Shown in pieces: positions 25,012-44,103 of a DNA stretch of 64,000 bases; the first letter of the stretch is position 1, and each line of letters opens with the position of its first letter. Made by a program: the position numbers and the translations under genes. Below the pieces are notes generated by a model. That model made no database searches and was not told where the DNA came from. It saw only the letters and a program-made list of their open reading frames with translations. Where the stretch lies: sequence record MW269952.1; one strand, written 5' to 3'. Source of the stretch: Escherichia phage P479.

Positions 25012-25271
25012 AACTTTATGATTTTAATGAAGCGGGGCTTGAACATATCCGCGAATGTGATGTGGTTGACGACGATAATCAACCGAATACTATTAAGTAT
25101 TGGTTTGAAGCTATCACTGACCGGGAAACCGGTCAACTTATCAAAGTCTATGTAGTCACCGATTGGGCCGTAGAATTTAGCTTTAATGTAATGGAAGATG
25201 ATACCCCAGAGACATTAATTCATATGGCTGAATCATGCATCAAGGATGCTTATTATGATGAAGACTTTTGA
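25008..25271 (+). CDS. Hypothetical acidic protein
   Basis: 87 aa; between genes 47 and 46. Confidence 0.4.
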   Translation: MKLYDFNEAGLEHIRECDVVDDDNQPNTIKYWFEAITDRETGQLIKVYVVTDWAVEFSFNVMEDDTPETLIHMAESCIKDAYYDEDF

Positions 25272-25464
25272 ATTTAATCTTGATGATGAATTTGTAGCAA
25301 ATATTGATTATACCGAAGAAGATTCTAGATATGTCGGAATAATTTATATCACATCAAAAACGGCGCAGGGAGTGGTTTGCATGGCTGAATTTGATGAATG
25401 CTTTTTAGATTATGATGATATGATAGAATGGTCTAAAAGATACATTAAAAGGAATCTTTTGTGA
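25246..25464 (+). CDS. Hypothetical acidic protein
   Basis: 72 aa. Confidence 0.35.
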   Translation: MLIMMKTFEFNLDDEFVANIDYTEEDSRYVGIIYITSKTAQGVVCMAEFDECFLDYDDMIEWSKRYIKRNLL

Positions 25465-27143
25465 AGACTTTTAAGCTTAAGAAAGTTATCTATAAAAATA
25501 TTATGTCGGTTGGTGCTCAACCGATTACTGTTGAACTGGATAAAGTCCAGAAAACTCTGGTCACCGGCAAGAATGGTGCGGGTAAATCTACGTTCCTTGA
25601 AGCGGTTACCTTTGCTATGTTCGGTAAGCCTTTCCGTGATGTAAAGAAAGGCCAGTTGATTAACTCGAGCAACAAAAAAGATATGCTCGTTGAATTGTGG
25701 ATGGAATATGATGGAAAAGAATACTATATCAAACGCGGGCAAAAACCCAATGTTTTTGAAATCTCTTGTGGCGGTAAACGTCTTGATGAATCTGCCAGCA
25801 GTAAAGACTTCCAAGCGGAATTTGAACAGCTCATCGGAATGTCCTATGCAAGCTTCAAACAGATTGTCGTACTCGGCACAGCTGGATATACCCCTTTTAT
25901 GGGCCTATCCACTCCTGCAAGAAGAAAACTTGTCGAAGACCTTTTAGAGGTTTCTGTACTGGCCGATATGGATAAGCTGAACAAATCTCTTATCCGCGAA
26001 GTCAATAGTCAAATCCAGGTGATGGATGTGCAGCATGACGGGATTGTTCAACAGATTAAAATCTATCAGGACAACGAAGACCGTCAAAGAAAATTATCAG
26101 GTGATAATCTGTTGCGGCTGCAAACGATGTATGATGAACTTGCCACAGAAGCACGTGGAATCAAGACAACTATCGAAGAAGCAACGACAAGACTGACCGA
26201 GATAATCTTGGGAGAAGACCCTGAGCATGAACTCACGAAGTTAAAGCAGGAATCATTCCTGATTAAGTCGAAGATAGACGATTACCGAAAGGTTGTTGGT
26301 CTGTACGAGAAAGGTGGTTGCTGTCAGACTTGCGCCAGTCAGTTGCATCCAGGAGACCCTATTGTCGCCAGGATTGAGTCAAAGATTGAAGAATGTAATG
26401 TATCAGCTGATAACCATAAAGCTCGCCAGAACGCTGTTCAGGAGCAATTTGATGCGTATTCTGCTGCAAGACAAAAACAACGTACAATAGCTCAAGACAT
26501 TCAAACCAAGAAACAAACCTTAGTCCAGACTGTCGAAAAAGCTAAAAAGGTTAAAGCATTAATCGAGCAAGCTAAGTCAGAATTCATCGACCATGCAGCA
26601 GACATTAAAATGCTTCAAGACCAGCTTGATAAAATAGTCAAACAGAAATCCGACCTTGTGATGGAAAAATATCAACGTGGTATTCTAACGGATATGTTGA
26701 AAGATTCCGGTATCAAAGGCGCGATTATTAAGAAATATATTCCCATCTTTAATAAGCAGATAAACGCTTATCTTAAAGTTATGGAAGCTGATTATAGTTT
26801 TACGTTAGATGAAGAGTTCAACGAAACGATTAAATCTCGTGGACGTGAAGACTTCAGCTATGCATCATTTAGCCAGGGTGAAAAAGCTCGTATCGATATC
26901 GCATTGCTGTTTACATGGCGTGATATTGCTGCGAAAGTATCTGGTGTGCAAATTAGTACGTTGATTCTGGATGAGGTCATGGATTCAGCCACTGACGCCG
27001 AAGGCATCAAAGCTATCCAGGCAATTATTAATAAATTGGAAGGTCAAAACGTGTTTATCATTAGCCATCGTGAACACGACCCAGAAGCATATGGACAGCA
27101 TCTTCAAATGAAAAAAGTCGGTCGATTTACTGTTCTGGAATGA
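25461..27143 (+). CDS. 46: Recombination endonuclease subunit gp46 (Rad50/SbcC-like ATPase)
   Basis: 560 aa; Walker A GKNGAGKST, coiled-coil middle with CxxC zinc hook (CCQTCAS), signature FSQGE and Walker B LILDEV. Confidence 0.9.
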   Translation: MKTFKLKKVIYKNIMSVGAQPITVELDKVQKTLVTGKNGAGKSTFLEAVTFAMFGKPFRDVKKGQLINSSNKKDMLVELWMEYDGKEYYIKRGQKPNVFEISCGGKRLDESASSKDFQAEFEQLIGMSYASFKQIVVLGTAGYTPFMGLSTPARRKLVEDLLEVSVLADMDKLNKSLIREVNSQIQVMDVQHDGIVQQIKIYQDNEDRQRKLSGDNLLRLQTMYDELATEARGIKTTIEEATTRLTEIILGEDPEHELTKLKQESFLIKSKIDDYRKVVGLYEKGGCCQTCASQLHPGDPIVARIESKIEECNVSADNHKARQNAVQEQFDAYSAARQKQRTIAQDIQTKKQTLVQTVEKAKKVKALIEQAKSEFIDHAADIKMLQDQLDKIVKQKSDLVMEKYQRGILTDMLKDSGIKGAIIKKYIPIFNKQINAYLKVMEADYSFTLDEEFNETIKSRGREDFSYASFSQGEKARIDIALLFTWRDIAAKVSGVQISTLILDEVMDSATDAEGIKAIQAIINKLEGQNVFIISHREHDPEAYGQHLQMKKVGRFTVLE

Positions 27144-27900
27144 GCCTCTTATTGAGGCTTCATTTTGCAGTTATCAAAATGCCAACGTTTCATATTGGCT
27201 GGCGTACCGACTACATTACAATGTGGACACTGAATTTTGGGGTCCACCTTTTTCTTCCGGTTTGGATTGGATTTGCAGAATTGTTGGTGAGTGGATATAA
27301 CACACTTTTTACCTTCAAGACCACAAAATTCACAAGTTAAAATTTCATGTTTAGCTTGTTTTAATCCTACTGAAATTTTTTGCTTTTGTTTTTCTGGAAT
27401 AGTATGAACAACCTTGTTTGGACCTTTGGAACAGTTATCAAAATGCCAACGATTCATATTGCCAACGAGACCGGTTTTTCCACAGTGTGGACATTCAACT
27501 CTCGGTTTTAATTTGGCGGATTCTGACATTTTCTTTCTGGTTTCATCGGAGAAAATTTTATTTTGTTGAGCTTCCAAGTTTTTACGACGAAGCCATCCAA
27601 ATAATTTGTTTTTGCTTCTGTCGGCGTTTGGTGAGGAAACTGTCATCATGCGCGCGGCATAGACCAAAGAAGCATTATTTGGATGCATTTTGACCAACAG
27701 TTGATGACAAACGAAATGTTCCTCGGGAGTTAAATCAACAAGATTTGAAGCGTCGTCTGCCCCACCCATACAACGGGGTATAATGTGATGACTTTCAGAG
27801 TATGTGGTTAATTTGCGATTCAATGCTCTGCTAATAAGCTTTTGGTAAATGATGTTATAATTCATATCAGACCCTTGTTTGATACTGCAACGGATAATAT
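27144..27900 (-). mobile_element. Homing-endonuclease insertion between genes 46 and 45
   Basis: Only antisense gene in a co-directional replication-gene block; HNH family. Confidence 0.55.
27149..27865 (-). CDS. Free-standing HNH homing endonuclease with three zinc-ribbon repeats
   Basis: 238 aa from the internal Met (MNYNIIYQKL); HNH motif SHHIIPRCMGGADDASNLVDLTPEEHFVCH; three CPHCGKTG/NMNRWHFDNC-type repeats; AAGGG Shine-Dalgarno. Confidence 0.75.
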   Translation of the reverse strand: MNYNIIYQKLISRALNRKLTTYSESHHIIPRCMGGADDASNLVDLTPEEHFVCHQLLVKMHPNNASLVYAARMMTVSSPNADRSKNKLFGWLRRKNLEAQQNKIFSDETRKKMSESAKLKPRVECPHCGKTGLVGNMNRWHFDNCSKGPNKVVHTIPEKQKQKISVGLKQAKHEILTCEFCGLEGKKCVISTHQQFCKSNPNRKKKVDPKIQCPHCNVVGTPANMKRWHFDNCKMKPQ

Positions 27901-28121
27901 TATTTATGAGCAATTTTTTAACCGGGCAGCATTTACTGGCTGTCCCTGAAATTAAACGGTATGTGTTAGTTAATACCTTTTCGAAAGATGAACACCTTGT
28001 TACTGAACGTGACTTACAAAACGCTTTCGGTGAAGAATATGTTAAAATAATCGCGAACAGACACAATGCCTGGTTCGCATATGAATACTTTGATTAATTG
28101 ATAATGAATAGAGAGAATATT

Positions 28122-28529
28122 ATGAACAACGTAACTGCTAAAGATATCCAAGTTAAAACCATCCGCACCGACGCTAACCCACACAACCAAAACCGCATCC
28201 GCAAATCCTGGGTCCTGGCATGTGATGAAGCATCTGCTGCCCGTCTGCAGTCTCTGCCGCAAGAAGTTAAATTCATGCTGTACGGTGTGATTGATACTGA
28301 TGTATCTGATAAGTGGATTGAACTGATGCGTAATCACTACAACGATTCACTGGCTGCTGGTGCTAAACTGGTTATCGACCGTGACGGTTCCGAACGTCTT
28401 GAAGATGATTATTGTGTTAACTCTGACGACCATCTGGTGCAAGCTGGTTCTATTATTGCTGCGCAACTTCCAGAGTATATTGAATCTCTTCCAGAAGCTA
28501 TCCGCAAACAAATGGCAGTTGTTGCTTAA
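28122..28529 (+). CDS. rpbA: Hypothetical protein, RpbA-like by position
   Basis: 135 aa from ATG 28122; sits between genes 46 and 45 where T4 encodes RpbA; sequence not verified. Confidence 0.35.
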   Translation: MNNVTAKDIQVKTIRTDANPHNQNRIRKSWVLACDEASAARLQSLPQEVKFMLYGVIDTDVSDKWIELMRNHYNDSLAAGAKLVIDRDGSERLEDDYCVNSDDHLVQAGSIIAAQLPEYIESLPEAIRKQMAVVA

Positions 28530-28559
28530 TTAATTTTGATTTGAATAAAAGGTAATTAA

Positions 28560-29255
28560 ATGAAATTCTCTAAAGACACTATCGCAGTTCTGAAAAACTT
28601 CACTTCCATTTACTCTGGCATTATGCTTAAGCCAGGTAATACCATCCTGACTCGTTCTGTAACTGGAGCGTCATATGGTGAATCTGAAATCAATGATACA
28701 ATCGACTTTGAAGCTGCAATTTATGACCTGAACGGCTTCTTAAGTATCCTGGGCCTGGTAACTGACCAAGCCGAAGTATCTCTGGCTGAAGATGCATCGA
28801 ATATCATTATCAAAGACCAACGTTCAACGATTCACTGGCCAGCGGCTGACCCGAGCACTATCGTGTTCCCTGCTAAGAAGATTCCTTTCCCGGTAGCTAA
28901 GGTTATCTTCGACCTGAAAGGCAGTGACTTGCAGCAGCTTCTGCGTGTGGCTGGCGGTTTGTCTCTGGATACCTTTGCAATCACCAACAAAGACGGTAAG
29001 ATTGTTATCCATGGTTATAACCAGCTCGAAGATAAAGAATTAGCGCGCCCATTGTATTCCCTGGTGTGTGGTGATTATGAAGGCGATGCAGCGTTCAAAT
29101 TTATCATTAACAAACTGAACATGAAAATGATTCCGGCTGATTACCGTGTTATGCTTTGGGCGAAAGATGATAAATTTGCTACGAAGTTTGAAGGCACACA
29201 AGCAAGCTATGTGATTGCAATGGAACAAGGCTCTAGCCACGAATTCCAAGATTAA
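28560..29255 (+). CDS. 45: Sliding clamp gp45
   Basis: 231 aa; SGIMLK, IHWPAADPST, FPVA, LQQLLRV, KFEG match T4 gp45. Confidence 0.95.
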   Translation: MKFSKDTIAVLKNFTSIYSGIMLKPGNTILTRSVTGASYGESEINDTIDFEAAIYDLNGFLSILGLVTDQAEVSLAEDASNIIIKDQRSTIHWPAADPSTIVFPAKKIPFPVAKVIFDLKGSDLQQLLRVAGGLSLDTFAITNKDGKIVIHGYNQLEDKELARPLYSLVCGDYEGDAAFKFIINKLNMKMIPADYRVMLWAKDDKFATKFEGTQASYVIAMEQGSSHEFQD

Positions 29256-41425: not shown

Positions 41426-42454
41426 ATGTCATATATTGATAAAGAATTTGCAGTCAGAGCTTTATCGTATCAACCACGTTATAGAGAAGTCACCGGGAGC
41501 ACATTTAAAGCAAACTGTCGTTGCAAGGTTTGTGGGGACTCCCAGAAAGATTCACACAAGGCTCGATTCTGGGCGTATACTAATCCGGCTGATGGCGCGG
41601 TTTACGTGAAATGTTTTAACTGTGACTACTCCACGCATATAAGCAAATACATAAAAGAGTTTGAGCCTGATTTACACCGGGAATATATGGTTGAGAAGTA
41701 CAAGGAGAACGCCTTCGGGCGACAACGTAATGAAGTTGCAGAAGCTCCGAAAGAACCAGAAAAAACTCCGGTTATCGAACAGCTTGCTTTTTGTGAAAGA
41801 CTCGATACTTTACCAGAAGCACATCCGATAGTTAAGTATGTAAAAAGTCGATGTATTCCAAGCAATGTTTGGAACCGACTATGGTTTACAAACCAATGGC
41901 CTGCATTAGTTAACTCCGTTAATCCTGGGACGTATAAGAATGAAACGAATGAACCACGCTTGGTTATTCCTATCTTCAACGGCAAAAAAGAAATCGAATC
42001 TTTCCAAGGACGAGCTCTTCGCAAAGATGCACCACAAAAATATATCACAATCAAAGCTCACCCAGAAGCTTCCAAAGTCTATGGCGTAGACAAGATTGAT
42101 GAGCGTAAACGCGTATGGGTAATGGAAGGTCCGATTGATAGTTTGTTTATCCCTAACAGCATTGCGATAACTGGTGGAACATTGTCATTGGAAGCCGTTC
42201 CTTATCCAGAAACCAGAGTATGGGTAATGGACAACGAACCAAGACATCCGGATACGATTAAACGTATGAAGAAGCTCGTTGAAGCTGGCGAAGCTGTTAT
42301 GTTCTGGGACAATGCACCATGGCATACGAAAGACATAAATGAGATGGTTAAATCAGAAGGAGCAACCCCTGAACAAATCGAATCATATATGGCCGATAAC
42401 GTTGCTCAAGGATTGATGGCGAGAATGCGACTTTCGAAGTACGCAAAAGTTTAG
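41426..42454 (+). CDS. 61: DNA primase gp61
   Basis: 342 aa; N-terminal zinc ribbon (CRCKVCGDS...CFNCDYS) and TOPRIM region (VMEGPIDS); matches T4 gp61 length. Confidence 0.9.
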   Translation: MSYIDKEFAVRALSYQPRYREVTGSTFKANCRCKVCGDSQKDSHKARFWAYTNPADGAVYVKCFNCDYSTHISKYIKEFEPDLHREYMVEKYKENAFGRQRNEVAEAPKEPEKTPVIEQLAFCERLDTLPEAHPIVKYVKSRCIPSNVWNRLWFTNQWPALVNSVNPGTYKNETNEPRLVIPIFNGKKEIESFQGRALRKDAPQKYITIKAHPEASKVYGVDKIDERKRVWVMEGPIDSLFIPNSIAITGGTLSLEAVPYPETRVWVMDNEPRHPDTIKRMKKLVEAGEAVMFWDNAPWHTKDINEMVKSEGATPEQIESYMADNVAQGLMARMRLSKYAKV

Positions 42455-42651
42455 GAAGGGATTCCGGTAAAGTAACCGATGATGGAATGGATATGTTCCA
42501 TTGTGACCTGGAGTAAGTGTACCCCTTGTGTTGCAGCGATAGGCACAACCAGTAAGTTCCACAGGAAAACATCAAGAGCTAAAAAGCCCATGATGAGCTT
42601 CTTGTCTTTCTTACTGGTTAATTTCCAAATCTGATAGAATAATGTTCCCAT
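42451..42651 (-). CDS. Hypothetical small membrane protein (paralogue B)
   Basis: 66 aa; AGGTGGA Shine-Dalgarno 8 nt after paralogue A stop; shares LWN(F/L)(I/L)V.P(V/I)A...GV motif with A. Confidence 0.5.
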   Translation of the reverse strand: MGTLFYQIWKLTSKKDKKLIMGFLALDVFLWNLLVVPIAATQGVHLLQVTMEHIHSIIGYFTGIPS

Positions 42652-42659
42652 AGTTCCAC

Positions 42660-42857
42660 CTATATAAGGCCGATTAATGCCAGTGAAACATCTACAACTG
42701 ATTCGAGCGCGACGACTGGTAATATAACACCATGTGCCATTGCAACTGGAGCAACAATGAAGTTCCAGAGTAGAACTAAACAGAGTACCGAAAGGACCAG
42801 AATCGTTCGCTTACGACTGCCTTTGATGGCTTGAATTAGACTAGATAGTTTTAGCAT
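42660..42857 (-). CDS. Hypothetical small membrane protein (paralogue A)
   Basis: 65 aa; AAGGGGGA Shine-Dalgarno; late-promoter-like CATAAATA upstream on the minus strand; one transmembrane helix. Confidence 0.5.
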   Translation of the reverse strand: MLKLSSLIQAIKGSRKRTILVLSVLCLVLLWNFIVAPVAMAHGVILPVVALESVVDVSLALIGLI

Positions 42858-42941
42858 ACATCCCCCTTTCTTGTATTTATGCTTTAAACCAATACGATAT
42901 AATTAACATACAAACAACATGAATTGATAAGGAAAAATATA

Positions 42942-43457
42942 ATGGCTCATTTTAATGAATGTTCTCAACTGATTGCTGGTGTTGATAAAGCTCAGGGCGC
43001 TTATGATAATGCAATTTTTGAAGGCACTGACCCACTGCAAGTTATGCTTGATATGCAGAAATCATTGCAGGTTCGTCTGGCTAATGACCGTGATTATTGC
43101 TACCATCCAGATAAATTAGCGACTGCTGGTGATGTTGTTGCTTGGATGCGCGAACAAAAAGACTGCATTGACGATGAATTCCGTGAACTGATTACTTCAT
43201 TGGGTGAAATGTCTAAAGGTGAAAAAGATGCATCTGCTGTCTGGAAAAAATGGAAGGCTCGTTATACTGAAGCGCAAGCTAAACCAATTTCAGAAATGTC
43301 CCCAGAAGACCAGCTTGAAATTAAATTTGAATTAATTGATATCATGCATTTCGTATTCAATATGGCTATTGGTTTGAATATGTCTGCGGAAGAATTGTTC
43401 AAACTGTATTATCTGAAAAATGCCGAGAACTTTGCGAGACAGGACCGTGGCTATTAA
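42942..43457 (+). CDS. 56: dCTP pyrophosphatase gp56 (MazG-like)
   Basis: 171 aa from ATG 42942; MAHFNEC...DPLQVMLDMQ...YCYHPDKL.TAGDVV.WMREQKDCIDDEFREL.TSLGEMS.GEK.ASAVWKKWKARY nearly identical to T4 gp56. Confidence 0.9.
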   Translation: MAHFNECSQLIAGVDKAQGAYDNAIFEGTDPLQVMLDMQKSLQVRLANDRDYCYHPDKLATAGDVVAWMREQKDCIDDEFRELITSLGEMSKGEKDASAVWKKWKARYTEAQAKPISEMSPEDQLEIKFELIDIMHFVFNMAIGLNMSAEELFKLYYLKNAENFARQDRGY

Positions 43458-44103
43458 GGCAAGATTTCATAGGACGTATATAATTAAAGTTAAAACGCCG
43501 AAAGGCGTTTTTTGGTATGGTGGTAAACACGAAACCAATGTACTAGACCCATATAAAGACCGATATTCAGGCTCCGGAAAAATACTCTGGAACATATATA
43601 AAAAGTATGGAGTCAAATATCAAATTCGCTGGTTTGTTGGTCACCAGAATAGGGAAATGGCGTTTGAACATGAAAGATATCTAATATCATTATTAAATTC
43701 TAAACATGGTTCAAACTGTATTAATATTTTACCTGGTGGGCAGGGCGGAGGCGGATATGAATGGACTGATGAAATGAAGTTGGCCCAAACACTACGTTTA
43801 AATAAGCCCGAAACTAAAGCTAAAATGAAAAGCGCCCAATGTGTTGCTCAAAATCGCCCTGAACGCAAATCCAGACAATCAAAAGCAATGAGCGAGTTTT
43901 ATGCAAATGGTGGAAATAAAATCGTATCAGAAGCCACATCTAAAGCGCAAAGAACTGCAGCTCATTGGCATGAACCATTGAAAAGTGAAATCTATCAGAT
44001 TTGGCTTTCATTAGGTAAACCCGGTGGAGCTTCTGCTGTGGTTAAAGCACTTAAGGGAAAATACGAAACAACCCCCAGCGCACTTAAACTTTTAATATAT
44101 TAA
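43420..44103 (+). CDS. segF: GIY-YIG-like homing endonuclease (SegF-like by position)
   Basis: About 227 aa; YIIKV...VFWYGGKH, HERYLISLL and NILPGG resemble GIY-YIG elements; between gene 56 and soc as T4 segF; start uncertain, overlaps gene 56 end. Confidence 0.5.
   Translation: MPRTLRDRTVAIKARFHRTYIIKVKTPKGVFWYGGKHETNVLDPYKDRYSGSGKILWNIYKKYGVKYQIRWFVGHQNREMAFEHERYLISLLNSKHGSNCINILPGGQGGGGYEWTDEMKLAQTLRLNKPETKAKMKSAQCVAQNRPERKSRQSKAMSEFYANGGNKIVSEATSKAQRTAAHWHEPLKSEIYQIWLSLGKPGGASAVVKALKGKYETTPSALKLLIY

Follow-up and report, generated by a model that had tools for sequence, protein, structure and literature searches.

Sporadic homing endonuclease genes (HEGs) beside essential genes are to be expected in T4-type phages; among the Mob genes of T4, we know of a demonstrated activity for MobE only. 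The MobE enzyme nicks nrdB of phage T2 at a distance from its own gene, and the flanking DNA is co-converted (PMC2790892). The GIY-YIG enzymes SegF and SegG, whose activity is experimentally documented and whose targets are genes 56 and 32, are described as cutting a neighbouring essential gene hundreds of base pairs off, with co-conversion and local marker exclusion (PMC2988022; PMC2790892). With the exception of segD, all homing endonuclease genes of T4 are co-oriented with their neighbours; the T4 mob genes are likewise co-oriented with their neighbours and mostly promoterless (PMC2988022). The exception, segD, is a free-standing GIY-YIG gene of the late region; it runs opposite to the essential genes on either side, and no promoter of its own can be recognised (PMC2988022). 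In the intron-encoded I-TevIII, C-terminal fingers of the form CX2CX12-13HX3C were found by experiment to bind zinc, to be required if the enzyme is to bind DNA, and to form part of the region through which it dimerises (PMC1865063). The gene analysed here lies within a stretch of 64,000 nucleotides of Escherichia phage P479 (MW269952.1), referred to below as the window, and is probably a free-standing homing endonuclease cassette of the T4 Mob class that would home as proposed below. It resembles segD in being free-standing and oriented against essential neighbours, and differs from it in encoding an HNH enzyme and in having a late-type promoter box just upstream; unlike the T4 mob genes, it is antisense and has such a box of its own. 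SegF and SegG match the model proposed for this HNH gene, which is known from its sequence.

The original prediction of a 238-aa HNH gene on the minus strand at 27149-27865 was borne out by the reading frame and by its intact motif; the ORF runs from an ATG at 27865 to a TAA at 27151-27149 through 238 codons without interruption (Table 1). Its product matches PHROG 655, "homing endonuclease" (E=8e-67), and is 100% identical to proteins of the phages DK-13 and PSD2001 that are labelled (putative) homing endonuclease. The plus-strand gene order around the insert is 47, 46.2, 46.1, 46, insert, 45.2, rpbA, 45, 44, 62, regA, and a gap of 5 nt separates the end of gene 46 from the endonuclease ORF. 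The gene had also been predicted to be the only antisense gene in the replication block, and the annotation of the near-identical DK-13 genome agrees, since the endonuclease gene is the sole opposite-strand gene in the block 47-46-45-44-62-regA-43. Small antisense ORFs occur farther off, at window positions 42451-42857.

Table 1. Features of the endonuclease locus and its flanks, in window coordinates.
Feature	Position	Strand	Basis or remark
Gene 46	25461..27143	+	
Diverged patch at the 3' end of gene 46 that goes with the endonuclease gene; encodes LILDE ... ISH and the gp46 C-terminus	26948..27143	+	Alignments
Stem-loop that takes in both convergent stop codons (gene 46, endonuclease gene)	27129..27171		Folding energy
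Free-standing homing endonuclease gene, probable (238 aa, Mob-class HNH and three C2HC fingers)	27149..27865	-	ORF, PHROG 655, identity to annotated proteins
Zinc finger 3, aa 213-233, CX2CX12HX3C, CPHCNVVGTPANMKRWHFDNC	27167..27229	-	Counterpart of I-TevIII ZF2, family hallmark
Zinc finger 2, aa 178-197, CX2CX11HX3C, CEFCGLEGKKCVISTHQQFC	27275..27334	-	Counterpart of I-TevIII ZF1
Zinc finger 1, aa 125-145, CX2CX12HX3C, CPHCGKTGLVGNMNRWHFDNC	27431..27493	-	Motif; additional copy, closest to finger 3
N-terminal nuclease domain, aa 1-118, HNH (H26, H27, N41, H50, H54)	27512..27865	-	Mob identity, McrA alignment, model
Right junction: 40-nt divergent intergenic region and first ~5 codons of 45.2 replaced	27866..27920		Alignments
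Shine-Dalgarno-like AAGGG, 6 nt upstream of ATG	27872..27876	-	Orthologs carry AAGGA there
Box CATAAATA resembling a late promoter (7 of 8 positions of consensus TATAAATA), 36 nt before the ATG	27901..27908	-	Putative promoter
Gene 45.2	27906..28097	+	Pfam Gp45_2, E=8e-24

The N-terminal nuclease domain is of the type found in the T4 Mob enzymes. In BLASTP it was 44% identical to T4 MobB (E=2e-29) and 44% identical to MobE (E=3e-30) over about 120 aa, and further matches were found to MobD (51% over 75 aa), MobC (36%) and the MobE of phage RB3 (46%). MobE and MobB carry the same signature in this domain, MNY..IY..LI...E.HHIIP.CMGG.DD..NLV.LT..EH, and their genes are, like the one in P479, free-standing, sporadic and placed between conserved genes. 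Against the possibility of inactive HNH residues, the motif was found intact (E24-S-H26-H27-IIPRCMGG...N41-LVDLTPEE-H50-FVC-H54); E24, H26, H27, N41, H50 and H54 are invariant in a family alignment of 46 sequences, and the N-terminal segment ESHHIIPRCMGGADDASNLVDLTPEEHFVCH gives a residue-for-residue alignment with the McrA HNH core. An AlphaFold model (pLDDT 93) places the beta-beta-alpha fold of an HNH domain at aa 24-60, where two strands (24-27 and 42-45) lead into a helix (47-60). The Pfam HNH match stayed under its cut-off (16.8 vs. 21.4 bits), as did every other Pfam match of the protein relative to its gathering score. Sequence and predicted fold are those of an HNH / His-Me finger nuclease, and assignment to the Mob class is indicated by the Mob-type HNH domain, the free-standing position between conserved genes and the presence or absence of the gene among close relatives.

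The C-terminal halves, in contrast, are unrelated; MobB, MobC, MobD and MobE have no C2HC fingers, unlike the P479 protein. The triple repeat motifs that had been recognised in this half stood up to analysis, and their designation as zinc ribbons did not. Zinc ribbons are built from two CxxC knuckles on beta-hairpins within a three-stranded sheet, with C4 ligands; here the ligands are C2HC, the His and the last Cys are carried on a helix that follows two strands, and Pfam zinc-ribbon matches remained below cut-off, so that the repeats are better described, on the evidence of the model, as I-TevIII-type C2HC beta-beta-alpha fingers. Fingers 1 and 2 are modelled as two short strands followed by the helix bearing the His/Cys pair (E122-124/E131-133/H134-141 in finger 1, E175-177/E184-186/H187-196 in finger 2), and finger 3 has its helix at H222-232, ahead of which DSSP recognises short bridges only. 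Structure-library searches gave weak, qualitative matches to zinc-finger arrays and to HNH domains. Homology to the tandem finger domain of I-TevIII, at about aa 205-266 of that enzyme, is indicated by the alignments, the spacing here being 11-12 residues: residues 154-236, comprising fingers 2 and 3 and an NPNR linker also found in the RB3 enzyme, are 37% identical to the C-terminal domain of RB3 I-TevIII over 93 aa (E=9e-12); finger 2 falls, linker included, within the BLASTP alignment to aa 180-266 of that protein; and the truncated I-TevIII remnant of T4 also matches (E=2e-11). The region of finger 1 (aa 106-155) matches that of finger 3 within the same protein, at 44% over 50 aa.

The ligands of finger 3 (C213, C216, H229, C233) are invariant in all 46 aligned homologs, and distant family members in the same alignment have NUMOD3-like repeats in place of fingers 1 and 2. 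Searching 5.8 billion proteins yielded 3683 relatives; among the best 120 of these, one finger was counted in 71 proteins, two in 14, three in 32 and four in 2, and by this count the finger module really does vary in copy number across relatives. Membership of the protein as a whole in the I-TevIII family was considered and rejected. I-TevIII is encoded in the nrdB intron and has two fingers rather than three, and no similarity was detected between its HNH catalytic domain and the N-terminal domain of the P479 protein; since the P479 gene is intergenic and free-standing, not intron-encoded, and specifies a different nuclease domain, it falls outside that family. An Rfam search of positions 26000-29000 found no RNA family. 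I-TevIII makes a double-strand break as a dimer; the P479 enzyme may either nick or cut. The protein reads as a natural chimera: its Mob-type nuclease is combined with two fingers of the I-TevIII type and a third, additional one.

The window comes from a Gaprivervirus, and its 5-kb region that contains the gene is 98% identical to that of the Gapriverviruses Escherichia phage DK-13 and PSD2001 (Tevenvirinae). Among the roughly 28 close Gapriverviruses with megablast matches of at least 90% identity, only five carry the gene (DK-13, PSD2001, MN01, Yersinia phage P8 and TH15), and it is absent from about 23, including UPEC07, SP18, VR20, VR7, VR25, VR26 and RZ. T4 was rightly said to have no gene here, as gene 46 and gene 45.2 are separated by a 55-nt spacer only, and an independent sample of 41 gp46 loci from IMG/VR contained the gene once, in IME281, and lacked it in the other 40; the gene is far from being present in all T4-like relatives. 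At the same time it is not peculiar to P479. Copies of at least 60% identity were found by tblastn in 128 phage records, and among the top 60 of these, all annotated records show the copy adjoining gene 46. Orthologs at the same site, with 60-77% amino acid identity, occur in four genera; those of RB32 (Tequatrovirus), Bp7 and FB (Dhakavirus) and G2285 (Mosigvirus) agree with the P479 gene in site, antisense orientation and length. The idea of a mobile insertion itself is upheld by the sporadic distribution, the clean boundaries and the linked patch of gene 46 described below.

The closest known system is represented by ORF054w of RB32 and its orthologs in RB33, Bp7, MX01, FB, IME281, G2285, ST0 and other phages, which share with the P479 gene the insertion site and antisense orientation, a length of 237-239 aa, the set of three fingers and a late-promoter box upstream of the gene, and which differ from it in being diverged to synonymous saturation. 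Where the window has a 5-nt gap, the RB32 and G2285 ORFs run 4-8 nt into the end of gene 46. The 2006 GenBank record of RB32 describes ORF054w as "similar to mobB", and two mob-like HNH genes were counted in RB32 in a 2010 review of T4-related genomes (PMC2993671). From genus to genus, the endonuclease gene has diverged to about the same depth as its flanking genes, a pattern that also fits long residence at this site with repeated loss. The literature searched contained no paper describing or characterising this gene or any of its orthologs, and no cleavage, expression or cross results for them, which counts against the main reading.

Anchored alignments of five Gapriverviruses with the gene (HEG+) and three without it (HEG-) delimit a cassette of about 970 bp, extending roughly from 26948 to 27920, which contains the 717-nt ORF, a 5' leader with the late-type promoter box, a shared stem-loop and a gene-46 patch of about 195 nt. 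All five HEG+ phages switch together near 26948, where gp46 reads GVQIS shortly before LILDE; the switched sequence takes in the rest of gene 46 and continues through the ORF, the 40-nt leader and the start of 45.2, where the N-terminus reads MSNF in HEG+ and MADF in HEG- phages and beyond which about 100% identity resumes. The boundaries of the insertion are clean, and the HEG- spacer is replaced entirely. The stretch of gp46 from LILDE to ISH we take to comprise the Walker B, D-loop and H-loop motifs. Between the window and SP18, gene 46 upstream of the patch is 94-100% identical (pS 0.06, pN 0.001), and its last 195 nt are 62-84% identical (pS 0.84, pN 0.12). The same one-sided pattern was seen by BLAST and ungapped identity profiles in each of four HEG+/HEG- comparisons (window/SP18, IME281/JS98-like, FB/L047 and RB32/T4-like): identity is 52-88% over the final 200-300 nt of gene 46 vs. 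96-100% elsewhere, and on the side of 45.2 identity is at least 88% in the first 50 nt and 98-100% after that, the sequences becoming near-identical within about 15 nt. The endonuclease gene is always linked to a diverged gene-46 tail; in MN01 the patch contains a small internal mosaic.

A diverged tract on one side of the insertion points to a footprint of co-conversion or immunity, and to a target that lies towards the 3' terminus of gene 46. Because the tract is one-sided, a break inside the gene-46 tail may be favoured over one in the spacer; that it would fall within the last ~200 nt of the gene we put at about an even chance. Comparing the junction with relatives that lack the insert, as had been suggested, delimited the replaced segment and did not pin down the target site, since the search for sites kept in 39 HEG-less tails and altered in every HEG+ tail gave no clean discriminating block; a difference in each within-genus HEG+/HEG- pair was seen at the VFDSAT (D-loop) codons only. 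For none of the HEG+ lineages did the approximately 50 sampled gene-46 tails include a patch donor more than 80% identical, so that a recent transfer cannot be traced to any source among them.

The cassette has putative expression signals of its own. TATAAATA is the established consensus of T4 late promoters, which are transcribed in dependence on gp55, and in T4-type genomes the antisense orientation at this locus is the usual direction of late transcription. The one-mismatch box of the window overlaps the ATG of 45.2 on the other strand, its deviant C complementing the G of the start codon, and the same variant CATAAATA is found in the other Gapriverviruses; in contrast, RB32, Bp7, FB and G2285 have a perfect TATAAATA at the homologous position, 35-45 nt upstream of the ATG. 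An exact TATAAATA was found nowhere on the minus strand of the window. Downstream of the box, a leader of the form GCTGTATCAAA..AAGGA is conserved in these four orthologs, and no hairpin sequestering the ribosome-binding site was predicted in the 5' leader (z = 0.01). The stem-loop across the stop codons is predicted to be stable on either strand, with a free energy of -18.9 kcal/mol for the plus strand (z -4.3) and of -14.1 kcal/mol for the minus strand (z -3.4). Since its core, AGCCTC..GAGGCT, is kept in Bp7, FB and G2285 and is absent from HEG-less relatives, the stem-loop belongs to the cassette, where it presumably serves as a bidirectional terminator or as a stabiliser of RNA 3' ends. 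An operator of the I-TevI type was also considered and rejected; the leader and the HEG-less target, at -166 to -185, share 12-14 of 18 positions in three lineages, which does not exceed shuffled controls. The leader segment GCTGTATCAAA bears a loose resemblance to the antisense of the gene-46 VFDSAT codons, not above shuffled controls and at most a weak lead.

The product of gene 46 is the Rad50-like nuclease subunit used in double-strand-break repair by T4-type phages. In the model that we consider probable, the endonuclease gene would be transcribed late, from the strand opposite the early and middle replication genes, and its product would bind DNA through the three I-TevIII-type C2HC fingers. 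The Mob-type HNH domain would then act on a co-infecting relative without the cassette, breaking its gene 46 / 45.2 region, most likely in the last ~200 nt of gene 46, either by a nick as in MobE (PMC2790892) or by a dimeric cut as in I-TevIII (PMC1865063). Recombination-dependent repair would copy the cassette from the HEG+ genome and co-convert the gene-46 tail, and nearby markers of the HEG-less parent would be locally excluded as a result; the HEG+ genome would be protected by its own heavily substituted gene-46 tail. We infer cleavage, homing and marker exclusion by this endonuclease from the features of the locus set out above.

The same mechanism could operate with recognition and cleavage at the 46/45.2 junction, a target that the insertion would destroy, the gene-46 tail then being hitch-hiking donor DNA. 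Such a target would suit the I-TevIII-type finger domain, as I-TevIII cuts 14-16 bp from its own insertion site (PMC1865063), and it is consistent with the replacement of the whole spacer of HEG-less relatives and with the lack of a discriminating position within gene 46. A cut at the junction should, however, co-convert both sides, and in all four comparisons the tract measures 200-300 nt on the gene-46 side vs. at most about 15-50 nt on the side of 45.2; gene 45.2 is not unusually conserved between genera, and a tract there would thus have been visible. We regard a junction target as unlikely. Alternatively, the gene could be an inactive or decaying relic that no longer homes and is kept by its linkage to gene 46 and the 45.2 start. 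T4 offers precedents for defunct HNH genes in mobA and the truncated I-TevIII, the late-promoter box of the window is imperfect by one mismatch, and precise loss of the cassette may be costly, since 45.2 takes its start codon from it and gene 46 its terminal stem-loop. Decay is nevertheless not what the copies look like: none of the nine that were examined is shortened or interrupted by a stop or frameshift, the ligands for catalysis and for zinc do not vary, and dN/dS relative to the window copy is 0.05 for P8, 0.07 for MN01 and 0.24 for TH15, with values of about 0.08-0.12 for the Dhakavirus and Mosigvirus copies. These ratios indicate an ORF under purifying selection, and together with the nine full-length copies they argue for a functional protein; a relic is accordingly given as very unlikely.

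Domestication by the phage, with the endonuclease excluding competitors, driving amplification or recombination near anti-defence or replication genes, or controlling 46 and 45.2 as an antisense or operator element, we rate as lower still in probability. A late antisense transcript would oppose the transcripts of gene 46 and 45.2, autorepression of the I-TevI type is known (PMC2988022), amplification driven by SegB has been reported (PMC13096335), and the leader GCTGTATCAAA has its weak likeness to the antisense of the VFDSAT codons; yet this likeness is no better than in shuffled controls, and most close relatives grow without the gene. A reading that goes beyond the probable homing model is that the cassette is at once a self-contained late antisense unit directed against the presumed ATPase core of gp46 and the carrier of a lineage-specific, hyper-diverged allele of that segment. 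Promoter, leader, ORF and shared bidirectional stem-loop could be the parts of such a unit, and we consider the two roles in conjunction quite doubtful. If this were true, traffic of homing endonuclease genes would be the main driver of gp46 C-terminal diversification across the genera of the Tevenvirinae, and gain or loss of I-TevIII-type fingers, from one to four copies, would retune target specificity.

The general picture is unchanged by this gene, which is a real but ordinary sporadic insertion already called (putative) homing endonuclease in the records of close relatives. Three aspects are modestly unusual: the combination of Mob and I-TevIII domains with a third finger, the antisense cassette with its own putative late promoter, and the close linkage to a hyper-diverged part of a recombination gene that is essential. 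With it, the small group of free-standing HNH endonucleases of T-even phages gains a well-delimited member. Gapriverviruses that are near-identical in this region exist naturally with the gene (DK-13, PSD2001) and without it (SP18, VR20, UPEC07), which makes marker exclusion at gene 46 and the co-conversion tract directly testable. The joining of a Mob nuclease to I-TevIII fingers, in variable number, could inform the understanding of how HNH enzymes change their specificity, as well as nuclease engineering.

In the DK-13 record the endonuclease encoded antisense between genes 46 and 45.2 is annotated as a protein of 206 amino acids that starts at the internal Met33 (L001:3150-3770), a start that would leave the HNH motif without its His-His pair; the P8 and MN01 records instead use the 238-aa start. 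The longer form is favored over Met33 because its N-terminus is conserved across the family.

Gene 46.1 and a 210-aa ORF of VR26 are also distributed unevenly among the relatives (coordinates in the table). Gene 46.1 is present in the window, DK-13, P8, MN01 and UPEC07; SP18, the VR phages and TH15 lack it, with a gap that corresponds to window positions 25259-25461. The 210-aa ORF of VR26, which had no match in a Pfam search, is sporadic and distinct from the endonuclease gene at the 46/45.2 junction; the window lacks it, and there gene 45 (at 28560) comes immediately after rpbA (28098-28529). Since this ORF is 99% identical in TH15, that phage carries two insertions, one on either side of 45.2-rpbA.

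Coordinates of additional genes and insertions in the window and in related phages
Feature	Location	Strand	Context
Gene 46.1	window 25246-25464	+	present in some relatives, missing in others
Antisense ORF pair, 65-66 aa	window 42451-42651 and 42660-42857	-	neighboring; flanked by primase gene (41426-42454) and ORF 42924-43457
227-aa ORF	window 43420-44103	+	overlaps end of the upstream ORF, 42924-43457
210-aa ORF, annotated "putative DNA endonuclease"	VR26, L009:3850-4482	+	between rpbA and gene 45
Counterpart of the VR26 ORF	TH15, L008:4578-5207		99% identical

The paired antisense ORFs near the primase gene encode hydrophobic products that look similar by eye and had no match in Pfam; the corresponding region of DK-13 has one annotated antisense gene of 65 aa, and an additional, co-oriented homing endonuclease gene that adjoins the primase gene and is missing from the window. 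ORF 42924-43457 is taken here as the gene 56 (dCTPase) homolog, and the 227-aa ORF presumably occupies the same position as the T4 segF site; by eye, the N-terminal sequence of the 227-aa product (YIIKVKTPKGVFWYGGKH...YSGSGK) resembles a GIY-YIG domain, but a Pfam search returned no match.

Within the diverged gene-46 patch, MN01 (L011) has a short run of bases of the endonuclease-less type around the ISHRDHD codons (equivalent of window about 27060-27085), a small recombination mosaic inside the cassette. In the Bp7 record (HQ829472, L005:3400-4900) gene 46 is annotated as two CDSs, and its translation shows frameshifts and stops near the LILDE (Walker B) codons, within the endonuclease-adjacent diverged patch; these disruptions could be sequencing error or true damage at the presumed target region. 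FB (L006) is a Dhakavirus, yet its gp46 C-terminus (FDGSFDAEGIKGVSNIINS...ISHKDHDPQ) is T4-like and unlike that of Dhakavirus, and the top nucleotide matches of its gene-46 tail are Tequatrovirus tails, at 80%; this affinity suggests that the donor of the FB cassette was a Tequatrovirus-like phage.
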